Positions 22,843-30,258 are shown, numbered from the stretch's first letter. The stretch is DNA of 58,239 bases from Paludibacteraceae bacterium (GCA_024401515.1 JAKSKY010000001.1:1-58239); one strand, 5' to 3'. Numbers and translations are program-made. The notes: generated by a model from the sequence alone, not told the origin.

Positions 22843-23571
22843 ATGAAAACGAATGTAAAAGGCAAATGGGCCCTTGTTACAGGAGCTAACCGCGGAATCG
22901 GTTACCGTGTAACCAAATTCATGGCATCTCAAGGTTGTAATTTGATTCTACACAGCCGCAGTTTGGAGCACACCCAAAAGGTTTGCGAAGAGGTGAAGGC
23001 TATGGGTGTGGAGGCTTACTGCGTAGCAGCGGAACTTTCCAACCCAGTTGAGGTGGAGAAGATGATCCAAGAGATCAAGGCAAAGGGCACACAAGTGGAC
23101 CTATTGTTCAACAACGCGGCGGTACAAATCGCTTACCGCACTGAGTATTTCAAAACTCCAGTAGAGGACTACTCTACCAGTTTCCACATCAATACCATCG
23201 CTCCGATGATGTTGTGCTACGCTTTCGTCCCAGATATGATCAAGCGTGGATTCGGTCGTGTCATCAACACAACCAGCGGTATCAAGAACGAGCCACAACA
23301 AGCAGGCTACTCCGCAAGTAAAGCTGCCCTTGACAAGGTAACAACCGATTTGGCAGGCACTGTGGATGGAACAGATGTGATCATCAGCTTAGCTGATCCA
23401 GGATGGTGCAGAACCGATTTAGGAGGACCTAAGGCTCCTAACGATCCAGACTCCGCTATTCCAGGTATGGTACTAGGCGCTTTCGTCAACGACAAGAAGA
23501 GCGGTAGATTCTTCTCCGCGCAAGATTATGCGGGCTTGACGCTTGACGAGGCTTTAGCCAAACTGAAATAA
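22843..23571 (+). CDS. SDR-family oxidoreductase
   Basis: TGANRGIG cofactor motif, NNAA motif, and catalytic YxxxK (YSASK). Confidence 0.85.
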   Translation: MKTNVKGKWALVTGANRGIGYRVTKFMASQGCNLILHSRSLEHTQKVCEEVKAMGVEAYCVAAELSNPVEVEKMIQEIKAKGTQVDLLFNNAAVQIAYRTEYFKTPVEDYSTSFHINTIAPMMLCYAFVPDMIKRGFGRVINTTSGIKNEPQQAGYSASKAALDKVTTDLAGTVDGTDVIISLADPGWCRTDLGGPKAPNDPDSAIPGMVLGAFVNDKKSGRFFSAQDYAGLTLDEALAKLK

Positions 23572-23603: not shown

Positions 23604-23619
23604 AAAAGGCAGCCAATTC
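23604..23619. terminator. Left half of a host terminator hairpin split by the insertion
   Basis: aaaaggcag-c-caat pairs with attg-a-ctgcctttt at 29450..29463 once 23620..29447 is removed. Confidence 0.65.
23616..23619. repeat. Target-site duplication, left copy (ATTC)
   Basis: The same 4 nt abut the outer ends of both inverted repeats. Confidence 0.65.
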
Positions 23620-23644
23620 TGATATGAACCCCGAAAGTTAGACA
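23620..23644 (+). repeat. IRL (TGATATGAACCCCGAAAGTTAGACA)
   Basis: Matches the reverse complement of 29419..29443 (TGAGGTGACCCCGAAAAGTTGGACA) at about 21 positions, with two 1-nt indels. The CCCCnAAAGTTnGACA core is as I recall for IS150-group ends. Confidence 0.75.
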
Positions 23645-23660
23645 AAAAACTTTCGGGGTT
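23627..23660 (+). promoter_or_regulatory. Perfect 13-bp hairpin formed by IRL and an internal complement, 6 nt upstream of orfA
   Basis: AACCCCGAAAGTT, 8-nt loop, AACTTTCGGGGTT, then TATTTATG. Confidence 0.6.
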
Positions 23661-23665
23661 TATTT

Positions 23666-24199
23666 ATGACACAAAGAAAGAAACACTCGTATGCGGATAG
23701 ATTGAAATATATGCATATGCTTGAAGATGGATATTCCAATGGCTATATCCACAAACATTATGGCATAGGACATAGTTTATTGTCTGTGTTATGGAGACGA
23801 TATCAAAAAGAAGGTTGTGCTGTTCTGAAAAAGAAAACATCCACAAGGGCCACAGCAAAAATAAAACTCAAAGCGATCCTTGACTATGAGAAAAAACATT
23901 TACCTTTGGTGGATGTGATGTCGAAGTACGACATTAGCGAGAGTGCTCTATTAGCCTGGTGCCGGAAGTATCATTCAGGTGGCGTAGAGAGCCTTCGCAA
24001 GAAAGGAACTAAAGTCAGACCACCAGTTATGGGCAGACCAAAGAAAAAGACAGTAGAGGAAATGACTGAACTTGAGCGACTCCAAAAAGAGAACCAGGAG
24101 CTCAAAACAGAGATTGCCCTACTAAAAAAAGTGAGAGCCTTAGTAGAGGAAAGGAATGCCCGACTAAGAGAGATTGGGCACGGGCCATCGAAGAACTAA
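23666..24199 (+). CDS. IS3-family transposase OrfA (HTH plus leucine zipper)
   Basis: 177 aa. HTH regions, then GRPKKK ... ELERLQKENQELKTEIALLKKVRALVEE. The A AAA AAA slippery heptamer is in the correct frame. Confidence 0.85.
   Translation: MTQRKKHSYADRLKYMHMLEDGYSNGYIHKHYGIGHSLLSVLWRRYQKEGCAVLKKKTSTRATAKIKLKAILDYEKKHLPLVDVMSKYDISESALLAWCRKYHSGGVESLRKKGTKVRPPVMGRPKKKTVEEMTELERLQKENQELKTEIALLKKVRALVEERNARLREIGHGPSKN
24124..24130 (+). promoter_or_regulatory. Programmed -1 frameshift heptamer A AAA AAA
   Basis: The zero frame reads CTA AAA AAA GTG. The -1 frame continues into an OrfB-like sequence (..RAIEELRRGGH). Confidence 0.6.
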
Positions 24200-24222
24200 G
24201 GCGAGGAGGCCATCTTTATTAA
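24130..24222 (+). pseudogene. N-terminal stub of IS3 OrfB (about 30 codons, -1 frame)
   Basis: The -1 frame reads SESLSRGKECPTKRDWARAIEELRRGGHLY*. The typical IS3 OrfB N-terminus (..I.ELR..) is cut off before the DDE domain. Confidence 0.6.
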
Positions 24223-24299
24223 ATAATTCGACTCGTTTTTTTGAGTCTTATATAAAAGATTTTAAACTAAATTTAAACAATTTCTTAATCTTTTTATAT

Positions 24300-24680
24300 A
24301 TGAATACAGAAGAATCGCAAAATGTTGCAAATGTGAGTGCTGAACAATGGGCTGAGGCAAAAAAGATCGCACAGGATTTTATTGTGAATAAAAATGCCTC
24401 CGCACCTTGGACCATCAACAAATTGGTAGAGTGTGGATTTGAAAAAAGTGTCGCTGAATCAGTGGTTGAGTCTATCATGGTGCCAATTCTAAAGAAGAAG
24501 GCTGCCGATGAGGCTGCTAGTCAGGATTTGCTTTGGGGAGCTGTCGCCTTGTTTGGTGGAACAGGTCTTTTGATTGTGGAATTGATGTTCATGCCTAAAG
24601 TACATATCATTTTGTTCTTGGCGCCAGTATATGGTATCTACAGACTGATCAAGGGAATTTTTGGGAAAGTAAAGAAATAA
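24300..24680 (+). CDS. Small membrane protein (soluble N-domain plus two C-terminal TM helices), function unknown
   Basis: 126 aa from the ATG at 24300. TM segments LLWGAVALFGGTGLLIVELMF and VHIILFLAPVYGIYRLI. The track's upstream extension to 24174 runs into IS sequence. Confidence 0.5.
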   Translation: MNTEESQNVANVSAEQWAEAKKIAQDFIVNKNASAPWTINKLVECGFEKSVAESVVESIMVPILKKKAADEAASQDLLWGAVALFGGTGLLIVELMFMPKVHIILFLAPVYGIYRLIKGIFGKVKK

Positions 24681-25011
24681 GGTGATGTTGACGTTGAGCG
24701 AAGTCTAATGCACGGAGGTTCAACATATACGGAATTATCAGACTTAAATCCACATCGATTGGTCCTTTTGTCGTAATTATCCGATAAAGGGGAATCCGAA
24801 CAATCTCTAACAAACATGAGAATACTATTTTTATTTCTTTCGATTATAGTCTCGCAAGCAATATTCTCCCAGGTTAAAGAACTATATCCAACCAAGGTGG
24901 AGAAACTTCCTTTTACAGCACACACTAAGGTTCAATATTGAAATGTGAATACCAAGGGATGGTTTGGGTAGATTTCATCCATCAATTTTGAAAACTAAAA
25001 AAGTAAAACTT

Positions 25012-26577
25012 ATGAATAGGATAAAGCGTTTTTTACTGGCAATATGCGGACTGGTTGCTGTTGCTAATACCAGCGCGAAGGAGTATGAGGTGAGAACTAC
25101 CTGTCCGGAAAGTGTCAAGTTGGGAGAATCTTTCAAGATTGCGTACCAGCTTGCAGTTGATAGTTTGCAGAATAAAGCTACCATCGGCAAGGTTAATGTG
25201 GAGAATGGTCAGATCACATACGGGCCTAAGATGGCCACCTCTACGAACGTTAGTGTGATTGGTGGCAAGTTTTCAAAGAATACTACCTATACATTCAATT
25301 TAGCCATACAAGCCAATGACAAGGATGTTGTCATCGAGCCTGTCGATTTTGATGTTTTGCTTTCAGATTCGGTGGTTGGCCATGCCAAGTCAGAAAGACT
25401 TGTGGTAAAGGTTGATTCTGTAGGAGAAGTAAAAAGGGAACAAATAATTGAATACGACAGCATCAAACCAGATGACATATTTGTCAAATGGGAATGCAGT
25501 AGAGACAAAATTACGTTAGGCGATACCATACAATGCGTATGCAATTTATATTATGATGTTTCCGGTTTGGATGTAGTTCATTTTGAAATGAGCAATTTCG
25601 ATGATTGTCTAGTTCTTTGTGATACCATGGGAAATTCGGATGAGAGAACAAAAAAGGTTAATTTAAATGGCCGGGAATATGACTGTTATACTTTGCTCCG
25701 GTATGTTTTGAAACCATTGAGGACAGGTACATTCAGCGTTGATGGCGGGGAAGCGACATTGGCAGTGCGTGTCAGGGAAAAACCCAAGAAAAACGCTATC
25801 TTTCCGGATGTTTTTTTTACAGTGTACCATAAAAAAGTGGAATATCAAACGAGGGTGGCTGGAGCCTCATTTAAAGTGAAGGGCAAGACAAAGCCAATCA
25901 AGAGTCAGCGGGTAAAAGGGACGGATGATGTCTATCTCTTGTGTAAGATGTCCCTATCTATGAATACTTTGGATTTCACGCCTGACCGTAAAGGTGCAGT
26001 TGCCAATTTTGCGGAGTCATGGTTCAAGAAGGTAGAGCACAGTGGATATGCGACATTCGCATCTTGTATCGGGACAATTTCCAAACCGAACGAGAAGCCA
26101 AGCAAAATAGACACCTCAATTAGTTGCGATCGTCCGGGTACCGCAACAGGAGACGCATTGCTCAAGTTGTCAGAGTCTGTGGAGAAGTGTAAGGATATTA
26201 TTATCATTACAGACGGTCCAAGTAATACAGGGCGTTTCTCTCTAAATACAGCCTTGGAGATTGTCCGCAGCAAGGGCATACGTGTCAGCTTTGTCTATGT
26301 GAATTCAGGTACAGATAAGGTTGATTACATGATAGATGGTAAAAAGGAGAGCTTGGGTAATTATACCCTCAAAGAGAAGGATATCAACAAGATACGAGAG
26401 GCAGTTGAGTCCACAGGCGGTATATTCGTTGAGGCTAAGAGTAATGATGAATTGCTTGGACTCTTACCACAGTTGAAGGCGTTGGTCTCTTCAAAGAGGG
26501 AATGTCCGAAAGCCGATGGTTGTCTTTATGACGCAAAACTGGTGAAGGAGGGTCTGGAGCTCTTGAAGGAGGAGTGA
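25012..26577 (+). CDS. Secreted BatD-like N-region fused to a vWA-like domain with a non-canonical MIDAS
   Basis: Signal peptide MNRIKRFLLAICGLVAVANTSA. BatD-like segments (VKLGESFKIAYQL; ITLGDTIQCVCNLYY ... LRYVLKPLRTGTF). vWA landmarks DVYLLCKMSLSM, GTATGDAL and IIIITDGPSN. Confidence 0.55.
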   Translation: MNRIKRFLLAICGLVAVANTSAKEYEVRTTCPESVKLGESFKIAYQLAVDSLQNKATIGKVNVENGQITYGPKMATSTNVSVIGGKFSKNTTYTFNLAIQANDKDVVIEPVDFDVLLSDSVVGHAKSERLVVKVDSVGEVKREQIIEYDSIKPDDIFVKWECSRDKITLGDTIQCVCNLYYDVSGLDVVHFEMSNFDDCLVLCDTMGNSDERTKKVNLNGREYDCYTLLRYVLKPLRTGTFSVDGGEATLAVRVREKPKKNAIFPDVFFTVYHKKVEYQTRVAGASFKVKGKTKPIKSQRVKGTDDVYLLCKMSLSMNTLDFTPDRKGAVANFAESWFKKVEHSGYATFASCIGTISKPNEKPSKIDTSISCDRPGTATGDALLKLSESVEKCKDIIIITDGPSNTGRFSLNTALEIVRSKGIRVSFVYVNSGTDKVDYMIDGKKESLGNYTLKEKDINKIREAVESTGGIFVEAKSNDELLGLLPQLKALVSSKRECPKADGCLYDAKLVKEGLELLKEE

Positions 26578-26668
26578 TGCGTGGTCTTTTGCGGGCGGCC
26601 ATAAGGGCCTCATTAAGAATAGAAAAACGATGCGCAAGGATAGCCGAGTTTATTAAGTAAAGAACGGA

Positions 26669-27436
26669 ATGAAACGAATAATTATCAATGCGGACGACTT
26701 TGGTCTTCATAAGGAGGGCGATCTTCATATTGCTCGCTTTATGGAGAGAGGATTTGTTTCAAGCACTTCGGTGGTGGCCAATGGGACGGATTTAGAGAGT
26801 GTGATTCAATGGGTCAAGTCGTTCCCCGATATTTCATATGGGATACATCTGAATCTCACGGATGGTGCGCCATTGACTCAAAGCCAATTGCTTTTGGATA
26901 TGGGTTTTTTCAAGGAGATCAATGGGAAAGTGCTATTCAATGGTAGACAATTCGCACGCGAATGGTTGACGAAAGAAGAGCGAAAGGATATCTTTACGGA
27001 GTTGGTGGCGCAAGTTAGTCGGTTGCGAGATTTAGGAATCGAATTATCTCATATGGATAGCCATCATCATATACATACCGCATACTTCATGTATCCTATA
27101 TTGCCGGATTTGTGCGATAAGGTAAAACTTTATAAGGTGCGGAACATAAGGAATTGTTATAGTCGTTTTTCGTTGACGCAAAAAGTCAGAAAACTGTGGG
27201 GAATGGGTCTCCGTATCCAAAATCGGAAGATTCAATTCCCTGATATGTTCTGTGATTTGATGACATATGCACATGCGTTGGAAAAGAATGCCAATGCCTT
27301 TTCTGCTGATGAGGTGGTGGAGTTGGAGTGTCATCCAGGCAGTGTAAAATGTAGATTGAAGGAGGAACCATTGTTTGAGAGAGTCCAGGTGGAGCAATGG
27401 AGCCAACGACGTCTTATTTCATACAAAGAACTGTGA
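26669..27436 (+). CDS. YdjC/ChbG-family carbohydrate deacetylase
   Basis: N-terminal IINADDFG motif, GIHLNLTDG, and a later SHMDSHHHIH segment. Length of 255 aa is typical. Confidence 0.8.
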   Translation: MKRIIINADDFGLHKEGDLHIARFMERGFVSSTSVVANGTDLESVIQWVKSFPDISYGIHLNLTDGAPLTQSQLLLDMGFFKEINGKVLFNGRQFAREWLTKEERKDIFTELVAQVSRLRDLGIELSHMDSHHHIHTAYFMYPILPDLCDKVKLYKVRNIRNCYSRFSLTQKVRKLWGMGLRIQNRKIQFPDMFCDLMTYAHALEKNANAFSADEVVELECHPGSVKCRLKEEPLFERVQVEQWSQRRLISYKEL

Positions 27437-27566
27437 TAGAGGTTGTAAATAAATATTACATACAAAGATTATATGCCCAAGAACTGAAATAGAATGATTG
27501 GTGACATGCGGTGTTTTGATTCGACTATTCAAGGAATAATATGCCTTTAAAACTCAAAGTAAAACA

Positions 27567-27977
27567 ATGAAAAAGATTGTGTTTGGTATATTTGTATTGT
27601 TGCTCTTTGTGGGAGGATATTGGTTAAAAGTCTGTACTTCAGAAACAATACAAATAAGTGAGAATACAGAGTTAAAATCTAAAGTTAATAGTAATTATAT
27701 GGAGCAGAATTTATTTTTGAAAGCTGTTGAACAGGATGAAATCATAGCATATTTTTCAGGTGAAGGGGAATATTCTATACATATTCCACGTACTCCTCAT
27801 TGGGGATATGAGGATAATGGAGAACATTTTTATGCTGAATCCTTTTCGGGAATGGAGTCTTGTGTCGTCAATAATTTAATAAGTGAAGAAAAATTGTATG
27901 ATGAATTGGATCGAAGTTTTACGAGTTGTTTAAGAAACAATCCTACAATAGATGTATTTTTTGATGTCATATATTAA
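27567..27977 (+). CDS. Hypothetical N-terminally membrane-anchored or secreted protein
   Basis: 136 aa. Hydrophobic N-terminus KKIVFGIFVLLLFVGGYWL. No recognisable domain. A+T-rich. Confidence 0.45.
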   Translation: MKKIVFGIFVLLLFVGGYWLKVCTSETIQISENTELKSKVNSNYMEQNLFLKAVEQDEIIAYFSGEGEYSIHIPRTPHWGYEDNGEHFYAESFSGMESCVVNNLISEEKLYDELDRSFTSCLRNNPTIDVFFDVIY

Positions 27978-28210
27978 ACACGATCTATCTAATTCACAAA
28001 AATGATGAAGATAGCTTCAAAAAGGAGTGGGTCTATTCCGATCATCTTATAGAATCGTTATTGGAAGAAAAAGCAACAAGAAAAAAAGGATTTAGAAAAA
28101 ATCCAAGAAATACAACGTTTCCTGAATTGGTTTAATGAGAATCAGATGAATGGGAAACTTGGCGAGATTTGTCAATAGCATGGGCGTAATACAATTTAAA
28201 TTTAAGAATT

Positions 28211-28609
28211 ATGAAAAGCATTGTAACAACTATTATCTCTCTTTTATTAATGGTTCCGGTATTTGCGCAAAATAGTTCAACTACTTCTGAATTAGTTCCT
28301 CTATTCGTTGTCAAAACTAGTGTCGAAGGAGGTATGCACGAAATTATTGGTCAAACTGGCAAAGATATTTTTCATATCAATAAAGAGACAGGAGAAGTTA
28401 AGTTATTATATTATGAAAAATACATCAATCTCAGTCGTCAGGAATCAAGCGAAGATGTCGCTGAGGCTGGTAAGATTAATTATCAGTTAGTGATATCTTC
28501 CAACGAAGTTTATCTTATGAACATTAATACTGGCGTTATTTGGTATTTGAAGAGCGCTGGCCTTACACACTCCAAAGATAAGTTCATTCTGATTACAGAA
28601 AAGAAATGA
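28211..28609 (+). CDS. Hypothetical secreted protein
   Basis: 132 aa. Signal peptide MKSIVTTIISLLLMVPVFAQ. The stop overlaps the next start (ATGA). Confidence 0.5.
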   Translation: MKSIVTTIISLLLMVPVFAQNSSTTSELVPLFVVKTSVEGGMHEIIGQTGKDIFHINKETGEVKLLYYEKYINLSRQESSEDVAEAGKINYQLVISSNEVYLMNINTGVIWYLKSAGLTHSKDKFILITEKK

Positions 28610-29367
28610 TTAAGGATTTTGTTGACACATATCTTGGGGGGAATATTGGGGACTTAAAAAATTTTGATTTCTCTCAACTACAAAGAGATAAGATCTATGG
28701 TTGTCCCGGTAGACCATTCGATTGCGATGACACAAATCTTGCTCGTTCCATCTATGTGCTTGTCTATCAGCAAGCTTTCCCAGATCTTTCTATAGAATCT
28801 CTTGAAGATGGCAAGTACAGGGGAGATACCATGAACTCCTTCAGGACTTTGATGGGGAAGTTTGTAGATGAACATGCTGCTTGTGAGGATGTGTATGACA
28901 TACCAGCTGACTTAGCACCCAAAATTCATCGTTTCATACATACCTATCATACCATTGGCAATTTTGTGCCTCTCCCTAACATTAAGACTACAAGGAATCT
29001 TAATATGATGCGAAGTATTCTTTGGCATGATTATTTTGACAGATTTTTGATTGAGGTAAAAAATTACCTGAACGAAGAGTTGTATCACGAGAAGTTCACT
29101 CCTTTGATGGAGGCCAACCACTTTGCCTTTGGGCAATATAAGGGTACGGAGAATGGATTTGCACGTTTAATTCATCTTCTTATGCTCGATGGTTATTTAG
29201 ACGATGATGGTTCCATTCATAAGTTCCAGGGGTTAACACTTCGTGGGAAATGGCCGAACGAGCTCTATTTCAATGAGGTTGAGCACTACATTGATTTTTG
29301 TACGTCATTGATAGAGGATCGAGCAGAGAAGATTATCGGGATTCTGAAGGATAAAATGCATAATTAG
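28606..29367 (+). CDS. Hypothetical cytoplasmic protein, no recognisable domain
   Basis: 253 aa with no signal peptide. Translationally coupled to the upstream ORF. Its stop lies at the junction with the IS OrfB C-terminal stub. Confidence 0.5.
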   Translation: MIKDFVDTYLGGNIGDLKNFDFSQLQRDKIYGCPGRPFDCDDTNLARSIYVLVYQQAFPDLSIESLEDGKYRGDTMNSFRTLMGKFVDEHAACEDVYDIPADLAPKIHRFIHTYHTIGNFVPLPNIKTTRNLNMMRSILWHDYFDRFLIEVKNYLNEELYHEKFTPLMEANHFAFGQYKGTENGFARLIHLLMLDGYLDDDGSIHKFQGLTLRGKWPNELYFNEVEHYIDFCTSLIEDRAEKIIGILKDKMHN

Positions 29368-29404
29368 CCCGGTACAATACCGAGCCCATTCTCTTATTAA
29401 TTAA
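29366..29404 (+). pseudogene. C-terminal stub of IS3 OrfB
   Basis: Reads SPVQYRAHSLIN*. (S/T)PVQYR is the characteristic C-terminal motif of IS3-family DDE transposases. The stop is 14 nt before IRR. Confidence 0.6.
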
Positions 29405-29418
29405 CTTATTTATTAATC

Positions 29419-29443
29419 TGTCCAACTTTTCGGGGTCACCTCA
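29419..29443 (-). repeat. IRR (plus strand TGTCCAACTTTTCGGGGTCACCTCA)
   Basis: Inverted copy of IRL; see 23620..23644. Confidence 0.75.
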
Positions 29444-29447
29444 ATTC
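29444..29447. repeat. Target-site duplication, right copy (ATTC)
   Basis: Identical to 23616..23619. Confidence 0.65.
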
Positions 29448-29463
29448 TCATTGACTGCCTTTT
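29448..29463. terminator. Right half of the split host terminator
   Basis: tc-attg-a-ctgcctttt pairs with 23604..23618 in the reconstructed empty site. It lies 25 nt past the stop of the 29488..30258 gene. Confidence 0.65.
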
Positions 29464-29487: not shown

Positions 29488-30258
29488 TTACTTTTCCCCG
29501 TCCTTACGCTCCTTGAACTTGATCGCATCGAACAATGCGGTAACCACCACACCGAACATTTGGTTGTTTGAGCGTTGGAAAACATCCGATTTCTTGTTGT
29601 TATACAAATCACCGAATCCATAAGAATAACGGAACTCTGCCAATAGATGGAAACGACTACCGATCATCACATCGAAACCGCCTCCGCCGCACAATCCATA
29701 ATCCATGGATTTATAATCCTCCATGAAACGGGGATCATCCAACTTAAAGGCCTCCTTACGGAGATCATTTTCGGGAATGTTCCACTTCACATCATGGTAA
29801 TTCATCAAGAACCTTAACTCAGGGCCCAAATTGACGATAAACTTCAACCTACGTTGTCCGAAGTAGATATGCGCTAATATCGGCACATCGATGTAGTCCA
29901 ACCTACGACCCAAAGAGACATCCTGAAGGTCGATACCATTCACCATCGCGACGCCCAAATCCTCATGGAATTTCTCCTTCCAGCCCGCTTGCGCATAATT
30001 CGCCTCCAATTGCACACCAAAATGGTTACGATGAACATATCGGGCCGTAAAACCCCAACGGGTAGCCATATCAAACGATTGATCTCCTAATTCAAAGAGG
30101 CGATCCGTCGTATTATGCAAGAAGCTAACTTTCGAGAAATTCAAACCTCCGTTGACACCAAATGAAACAGATTGTTCAAAGTCCCTACGTAACAACTGTC
30201 CGTAGGTGACCAAACAAGCTACAAGAGAGAATGTTAGGGTAAGAAACAATCTACGCAT
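29488..30258 (-). CDS. Outer-membrane beta-barrel protein (PorT/OmpA-beta-barrel-like)
   Basis: Signal peptide, alternating-hydrophobic beta-strand pattern, and an aromatic-rich C-terminal region. Confidence 0.6.
   Translation of the reverse strand: MRRLFLTLTFSLVACLVTYGQLLRRDFEQSVSFGVNGGLNFSKVSFLHNTTDRLFELGDQSFDMATRWGFTARYVHRNHFGVQLEANYAQAGWKEKFHEDLGVAMVNGIDLQDVSLGRRLDYIDVPILAHIYFGQRRLKFIVNLGPELRFLMNYHDVKWNIPENDLRKEAFKLDDPRFMEDYKSMDYGLCGGGGFDVMIGSRFHLLAEFRYSYGFGDLYNNKKSDVFQRSNNQMFGVVVTALFDAIKFKERKDGEK

Follow-up and report, generated by a model that had tools for sequence, protein, structure and literature searches.

A probable non-autonomous IS3-family element carrying six cargo genes in a Paludibacteraceae bacterium

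Insertion sequences (IS) of the IS3 family are compact elements of 1.2-1.6 kb, which express their transposase from orfA and orfAB by frameshifting, end in TG...CA and generate target duplications of 3-4 bp. We describe a 5.8-kb unit with the ends of such an element, found in a 58,239-nt stretch of DNA from a rumen or gut Paludibacteraceae bacterium (GCA_024401515.1, JAKSKY010000001.1:1-58239; this whole stretch is referred to as the window, and positions are counted from its first letter). Within the unit, most of orfB, which would encode the catalytic core of the transposase, appears to have been replaced by six genes that bear no relation to IS. Comparison with intact and near-identical copies of the same IS allows both ends of this replacement to be mapped.

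The ends of the unit and its transposase remnants

The unit lies between two convergent genes, for an SDR oxidoreductase and an outer-membrane beta-barrel protein (OMP), and is bounded by a left and a right inverted repeat (IRL and IRR; Table 1). Aligned with the reverse complement of IRR, IRL shows 21 identical positions, two 1-nt indels and TG...CA termini, and the score of this alignment was reached by none of 20,000 random 30-mer pairs drawn from the window. A copy of ATTC adjoins each outer end. The left end folds into a hairpin (-24.1 kcal/mol, z = -6.8) that is kept across the IS clade and which, with the T-rich run behind it, probably blocks transcription reading in from the SDR gene.

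Inside the left end, orfA is intact and the best NCBIfam match of its product is the N-terminus of transpos_IS3. A -1 frameshift at the A AAA AAA heptamer leads into OrfB for only 28 native residues, after which the frame reads L-Y-stop (TAA at 24220-24222). The predicted frameshift product is therefore a DNA-binding stub of 185 aa without the DDE domain, and a complete OrfAB is not encoded by this copy. At the right end the last 12 codons of orfB (SPVQYRAHSLIN*) are retained. A preliminary description of the window had listed the repeats with their flanking ATTC, the 177-aa OrfA, the heptamer, about 30 OrfB codons in the -1 frame and the 12 terminal codons 14 nt before IRR, and each of these is present as described. 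Judged from the sequence, some 255 of the 269 OrfB codons are missing from the window copy, a unit of 5.8 kb; this copy cannot make a transposase and hence is not expected to transpose by itself.

Table 1. Positions of the unit, its parts and the adjoining genes in the window
Feature	Position	Strand	Remark
SDR oxidoreductase gene, convergent with the OMP gene	22843..23571	+	Pfam adh_short
Terminator stem, left half AAAAGGCAG	23604..23612	.	pairs with 29455-29463
Target-site duplication, left copy, ATTC (or TTC)	23616..23619	.	loop apex of the reconstructed hairpin
IRL	23620..23644	+	exact match to the first 25 nt of the sibling
Left-end hairpin (IRL core and internal IRR-like arm), then T-rich run, just upstream of the orfA ATG	23624..23663	+	fold
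orfA, 177 aa, intact	23666..24199	+	HTH_28/HTH_Tnp_1; 100% identical to sibling OrfA
A AAA AAA slippery heptamer, -1 frameshift, in-frame near the end of orfA	24124..24130	+	
orfB stub, -1 frame, 28 native residues, then L-Y-stop	24130..24222	+	compared with sibling OrfAB
Left breakpoint	24214..24217	.	IS sequence stops at sibling nt 596-599
Cargo, about 5.15 kb, six same-strand genes	24218..29365	+	no similarity to the IS; L011 and L149 are contigs of cargo alone
Cargo gene 1, 126 aa, hydrophobic C-terminal part	24300..24680	+	no family match
Cargo gene 2, 521 aa, signal peptide, BatD-like domain, VWA-like C-terminus	25012..26577	+	orphan
Cargo gene 3, YdjC-family carbohydrate deacetylase	26669..27436	+	PF04794, 129 bits; NCBIfam matches below cutoffs
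Cargo gene 4, 136 aa, N-terminal hydrophobic segment	27567..27977	+	part of it missing from variant L149
Cargo gene 5, 132 aa, signal-peptide-like N-terminus	28211..28609	+	
Cargo gene 6, DUF6994-family, full length	28606..29367	+	stop codon TAG overlaps the right junction
Right breakpoint	29365..29366	.	IS resumes at sibling nt 1370; microhomology AAT(G/T)AG, imperfect
Last 12 orfB codons and stop	29366..29404	+	14 nt before IRR
IRR	29419..29443	-	identical to the right end of the sibling
Target-site duplication, right copy, ATTC	29444..29447	.	same IRR/flank junction in contig L018
Terminator stem, right half CTGCCTTTT	29455..29463	.	pairs with 23604-23612
Outer-membrane beta-barrel gene (OMP)	29488..30258	-	Pfam OMP_b-brl_2

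An intact sibling, the breakpoints and the cargo

Exact-protein look-up of OrfA in public assemblies retrieved several contigs that encode an identical OrfA and, behind it, an OrfB of 269 aa with rve (Pfam) domains. One of these contigs, L002, holds a complete sibling IS (L002:1-1447) that starts with TGATATGAACCCCGAAAGTTAGACA and ends in ...CTGTCCAACTTTTCGGGGTCACCTCA. There the -1 frame at A AAA AAA reads on into full OrfB, which scores 316 bits against the NCBIfam model transpos_IS3 (NF033516; cutoff 160). The sibling thus has the frameshifted gene pair, the rve-containing OrfB, the length (1,446-1,447 bp) and the TG...CA inverted repeats of an IS3-family member; its closest named relatives in plasmid records, judged by the transposase, are of the ISBce15 type, at 54% amino acid identity. 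The preliminary description had proposed a search for such a sibling of about 1.4 kb, and had noted that different ends would speak against an IS origin of the unit; the ends of the sibling are the same as those of the unit.

Six sibling copies differ from one another by 0-4 single-nucleotide polymorphisms (SNPs) and, since five of the six share the six-A run of the window, their consensus length is taken as 1,446 bp. Over about 670 nt the two arms of the window unit are 99.7% identical to this consensus; the only SNPs peculiar to them, 125T>C and 1402A>T, are synonymous. The base that follows ...CCTCA is A both in the window (29443-29447) and in the sole sibling with a right flank (L002:1447-1451), for which reason the IS may end in ...TCAA and the duplication may be of 3 bp (TTC) rather than of 4 bp; the duplications seen among IS relatives are mostly of 3 bp and some are of 4 bp.

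Alignment by blastn places nt 1-599 of the IS on window positions 23620-24217 (99.5% identity) and nt 1366-1447 on 29362-29443 (two mismatches). Between these arms the stretch of orfB that encodes the catalytic core, some 770 bp at sibling nt 597-1369, has given way to about 5.15 kb of other DNA, in agreement with the earlier account of a missing OrfB core and six same-strand open reading frames in its place. The left junction reads GGAGGCCATCTTTATTAAATAATTCG and the junction between cargo and IS tail reads GCATAATTAGCCCGGTACAATACC. We interpret the unit as a single IS3-family copy with its orfB core replaced by cargo, that is, as a defective and non-autonomous 5.8-kb element of the mobile insertion cassette (MIC) type. 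We put the probability of this reading at about 0.85, a figure that covers the structure and the lack of autonomy and does not extend to mobility. A non-autonomous, cargo-carrying IS3 derivative had already been proposed; the sibling with its identical OrfA, and the lack of DDE in the frameshift product of the window copy, uphold that proposal. The substitution would have arisen through illegitimate recombination; the right junction shows the imperfect microhomology AATKAG.

A remnant of a composite transposon, in which the cargo once lay between two full IS copies that were both deprived of their inner parts afterwards, would also present an outer IRL and an outer IRR, in an orientation that suits a direct-repeat composite. 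Two independent deletions would, however, have to leave exactly one IS-worth of sequence, nt 1-596 plus nt 1370-1447, without overlap, and the unit holds only one IRL and one IRR, with neither inner inverted repeats nor duplicated IS segments. As the arms are non-overlapping parts of one IS, we rejected this origin as unparsimonious and regard it as scarcely credible.

The cargo is lower in GC content (31-44%, and 31-38% in its right half). Genes 1, 4 and 5 are predicted to encode three small envelope proteins; gene 1 (residues 2-126 as query) had no match in Pfam, NCBIfam or PADLOC, and none in PHROGs. For gene 2 a public gene caller chose the ATG at 25012 (521 aa), while a TTG at 24964 would give 537 aa. 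The C-terminus of the gene 6 product is complete, so the right joint falls at a natural stop codon. The AlphaFold model of this DUF6994 protein is of very high confidence (pLDDT 96.6, pTM 0.92) and has no Foldseek neighbour in the PDB or BFVD; faint GmrSD/DUF262 matches (E about 5) were the only ones obtained, and one source names a homologue DUF262.

Searches of PADLOC, PHROGs, Rfam and PLSDB with the cargo gave no matches, nor did a search of IMG/VR with gene 2, and nothing in the predicted gene content links the cargo to phages, plasmids or defence systems. Outside its own cluster gene 2 has no relative closer than 40%, and the single relative at 40% lacks synteny. Among GTDB species representatives gene 6 has only relatives of 34-41%, from Lentisphaeria and without synteny, and its closer relatives (53-70%) lie in unrelated neighbourhoods. 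The six-gene order is absent from all the databases and neighbourhoods searched. Contigs with a copy of the cargo, the window excepted, do not exceed about 5 kb, as would fit a cargo with repeated IS sequence at its borders in every case. No promoter motif of the Bacteroidetes type (TAnnTTTG) was found upstream of the cargo genes, and a scan of the cargo for sigma-70 promoters and terminators gave no informative signal; as no promoter of their own was found, transcription of the cargo genes may come from orfA by read-through.

The insertion site and the route of arrival

When the unit and one ATTC are removed from the window, AAAAGGCAG-loop-CTGCCTTTT folds into a hairpin at -14.8 kcal/mol (z = -2.65) with UUCU at its apex. 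The empty site expected before insertion reads ...GCCAATTCTCATTG..., and the flank beyond IRR, on the OMP side, is ATTCTCATTGACTGCC. Lying between the convergent SDR and OMP genes, this hairpin is the terminator that the two housekeeping genes share; it is not a repeated element of the repetitive extragenic palindrome (REP) kind within the window. In contig L024, from a related organism that is the nearest available relative, a Fur-SDR pair faces an OMP gene, with 79 bp between SDR and OMP. The SDR protein is 96% identical to that of the window, and the DNA of the flanks shows 89% identity on the left side and 75% on the right side. A hairpin resembling that of the window, AAAAAGGCAA...TTGCCTTTTT, lies in the gap, from which both IS and cargo are absent. 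Cargo sitting at this locus in a relative that lacks the inverted repeats had been named as a possible objection, and L024, which has neither, does not bear it out. Exact-protein look-ups matched the flanking genes only in run SRR17543910.

Several lines of evidence bear on whether the assembled structure is real. The right junction occurs in identical form in Logan contigs of four further runs (SRR18398411, SRR25429215, SRR17543912 and SRR29445156; contigs L009, L010, L149 and L150), and so is not an artefact of assembly. The cargo of these contigs departs from that of the window by about 0.1-1%, and an identical junction in spite of such divergence points to a single, earlier substitution event. 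Three of the four contigs end exactly 30 nt past the junction, in the IS tail, the point at which a k=31 graph would branch if intact IS tails coexist. In run SRR17543910 the SDR/IRL and IRR/OMP junctions, each with ATTC, are found in separate contigs. Since the right arm, of no more than 78-82 bp, is joined to cargo, the cargo must be part of the element that occupies the SDR/OMP locus.

A number of observations nonetheless weigh against the reading of the unit as a MIC-type element, the first of which concern the assembly. The left junction is found in the assembly of the window only, and contigs L011 and L149 share a start at 24260, which is 45 nt into the cargo. (A 9-bp indel at 24288-24296, 28 nt downstream of that start, could give a bubble in the graph, for which the predicted start is 2 nt off; the shared start may alternatively signal a different upstream context for the cargo.) It might therefore be supposed that the assembler, coming from the SDR flank, crossed the shared left arm of 596 bp and went on into a cargo element lying elsewhere, given that this arm exceeds the length of a short read and that the window appears to be a metagenome-assembled contig. 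Against such a chimera stand the right arm, short enough for single reads to span cargo, IRR and OMP, the recurrence of the right junction in the four further runs, the two outer junctions with matching ATTC in a separate assembly, and the attachment of the IRR at the site to cargo, which places the cargo in that element. We consider a chimera very improbable.

On the same side is the state of the cargo. Variant L149 is 99% identical to the window and has a 285-bp deletion (window 27492-27776), which hits gene 4, together with the 9-bp indel. The ratio of non-synonymous to synonymous differences between the two (16:8) and the deletion suggest that the cargo is under weak constraint, a decaying passenger rather than a selected module. 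Only one locus of the unit is known. The 24-mer of the right junction has no match in JGI metagenome contigs, and in IMG/VR neither junction pattern was found; these searches thus gave no second insertion site, no different duplication and no IRR-IRL circle junction. None of 120 loci of the same IS clade holds a unit of inverted repeats around cargo or a cargo homologue; these loci, picked out through the IRL core, comprise complete IS copies, minis of 48 bp, solitary ends and loci cut off by the end of a contig. A second IS copy was not found in the window by blastn with the sibling. Furthermore, IS3-family transposases, as known from IS911, favour action in cis, which argues against efficient mobilisation in trans.

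If the unit does move, a sibling OrfAB would bind its ends in trans, make a figure-eight and then a circle, and integrate the unit, following the copy-out-paste-in model of IS911. For this the unit would have to be a valid substrate of the sibling OrfAB, as its ends suggest; its own OrfA and the 185-aa stub would more likely modulate or compete with the process than help it, and such competition, together with the preference for cis action, would lower its efficiency. Transposition of the preformed 5.8-kb unit as a whole into the terminator loop by this route, with ATTC duplicated in the act, is one explanation of its presence at the site. It agrees with the intact ends, the perfect duplication, a target of the kind preferred by the clade, arms almost identical to those of the siblings, and a cargo never met outside an IS context in very large databases. 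Near-identical intact siblings come, moreover, from the same sequencing projects as the cargo, a co-residence that holds at the level of projects only. The same duplication is, however, predicted equally by an ordinary IS that inserted first, and neither the single locus, nor the missing circle junction, nor the preference for cis action favours whole-unit transposition, which we entertain as a tentative explanation.

The insertion of an ordinary copy, with later replacement of the interior of its orfB through two illegitimate joints, would leave a relic that has never moved and is inherited vertically. The single locus, the weak constraint on the cargo and the short, imperfect microhomology at the right joint fit this history well, as do variants about 1% apart with indels, which resemble strain-level alleles of one locus. 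It demands, on the other hand, a double illegitimate integration of 5 kb falling exactly within a 1.4-kb IS, and a donor context for the cargo is absent from the databases searched; this history, which we rate on a par with transposition of the whole unit, is likewise a possibility that we hold only provisionally. Homologous recombination offers a third route, additional to the two between which the preliminary description had not chosen, by which a preformed unit overwrote a resident IS through its arms of 596 bp and 78 bp with no part for a transposase. Near-identical arms, an IS that is multicopy in these communities, and an orphan cargo of lower GC content, consistent with import, are all compatible with such a conversion. 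A right arm of 78 bp is, however, rather short for recombination to be efficient, and a plain IS at the SDR/OMP site was recovered from no strain; we judge it unlikely.

Returning to the MIC-type reading itself, mobility has no support beyond the intact ends and the duplication, and the remaining cargo contigs are too short to show flanks. A bolder version, in which the unit is a live IS3 cassette that arose in a single step (template switching in the course of copy-out replication of the IS circle being one example), mobilised in trans and spreading among rumen and gut Bacteroidales into terminator loops with orfA as its own regulator, seems to us rather unlikely.

The wider IS clade and related mobile elements

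Metagenomes of gut and rumen contain the 20-nt IRL core of this IS clade in over 120 contigs (loci L029-L148). The suspicion that the CCCCGAAAGTT motif is a generic intergenic repeat was rejected: it is common in metagenomes, but derives from the IS, being the left terminus of the members of a large IS3 clade and of their minis. Full-length relatives measure 1.42-1.46 kb and stand at the loop apex of strong flanking hairpins (-16 to -23 kcal/mol); such hairpin-loop loci, full-length or mini, are L037, L040, L054, L084, L107, L116, L130, L132, L139 and L144. Their flanks point to a preference of the clade for hairpin-loop targets like that of IS1397 and ISKpn1, IS3-family elements which insert into palindromic units (PMC1525189). 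The resemblance extends to insertion in the loops of extragenic palindromes or hairpins and to short duplications, as inferred here from flanks only; the clade differs in that its targets include unique intrinsic-terminator hairpins as well as a repeated palindrome, and its hosts gut and rumen Bacteroidales.

About 15 loci bear a perfect palindrome of about 48 bp, formed by IRL and its inverse, for example TGAAGTGAACCCCGAAAGTTAGACAAAAAACTTTCGGGGTTCACTTCA, in several cases with duplications of 2-4 bp (mini loci L029, L052, L061, L064, L074, L086, L089, L093, L094, L105, L108, L118, L128 and L139). From their sequence these look like minimal IS derivatives akin to MITEs, the miniature transposable elements with inverted repeats. 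In L054 a 1,455-bp IS sits in a palindrome of about 30 nt, GGAGAGCGAACATCNCTG...TTGGCTCTCC; in L094 the same palindrome has received a mini of 48 bp. The idea that the two represent one locus, with IS and with mini, was rejected as only the palindromic target is common to them and the loci are otherwise unrelated; the target appears to be a dispersed, REP-like repeat. Solo IRL hairpins without orfA recur with the left flank AGAG[T/C]AAATAAA (L041, L056, L112, L133 and L141) or GAA[A/T]ATATGTCA (L070, L080, L087, L106, L121 and L129), and may be fixed IS scars which now serve as terminators.

MICs are defined as passenger genes without a transposase that lie between IS ends and are activated by the cognate IS (PMC3129680), and transporter IS as IS derivatives with passenger genes inside the inverted repeats and a transposase of their own (PMC9330008, PMC3129680). 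The preliminary description had likened the unit to both classes. The second label does not fit, because a transporter IS keeps a working transposase and is autonomous, whereas the DDE core of the window unit is deleted; the likeness to a MIC stands. The ends of the unit match an intact cognate IS and a duplication is present; multiple sites and mobilisation in trans were not seen. As regards the lack of a transposase, the unit has lost the catalytic portion and carries six genes with no relation to transposition, yet orfA and the 28-residue OrfB stub are kept. MICs such as MIC231 of the Bacillus cereus group share with the unit the IS-type inverted repeats, the duplication, the passenger genes and the want of a working transposase. 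MIC231 derives from IS231, of the IS4 family; the unit differs in its IS3-family origin, in keeping an intact orfA and frameshift site, and in being known from one copy. A literature search found no description of an IS3-family MIC with a retained regulatory gene.

With IS3 elements of the orfA/orfAB, IS911 type the sibling shares the A7 slippery site, the rve-containing OrfB, the TG...CA ends, a length of 1.45 kb and duplications of 3-4 bp, and it differs from them in its long OrfA (177 aa) and strong left-end hairpin. Mosaic transposons built by Tn3-derived inverted-repeat miniature elements (TIMEs) are likewise non-autonomous, with captured DNA between transposon ends, and are moved in trans (PMC4133298). 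These mosaics are built from two mini-elements and belong to another family with another mechanism, whereas the window unit is one internally substituted copy.

Cargo-carrying defective copies are already known from other IS families, and the unit is a further case. As it stands, it is a defective IS at a single locus with orphan, weakly constrained cargo, useful for annotation and unsurprising to IS specialists. It is at the same time a clean natural example of an IS becoming a gene-carrying, non-autonomous cassette, in which both breakpoints could be mapped against a near-identical sibling. Were it shown to move, gene carriage of the MIC type would be extended to the copy-out-paste-in IS3 family and to gut and rumen Bacteroidales, and the unit would offer a tractable case for the effect of a retained OrfA on mobilisation in trans. 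The traits of the clade, namely an IRL that forms a hairpin, hairpin loops as insertion targets and palindromic minis of 48 bp, will probably be more widely useful for the annotation of Bacteroidales genomes.

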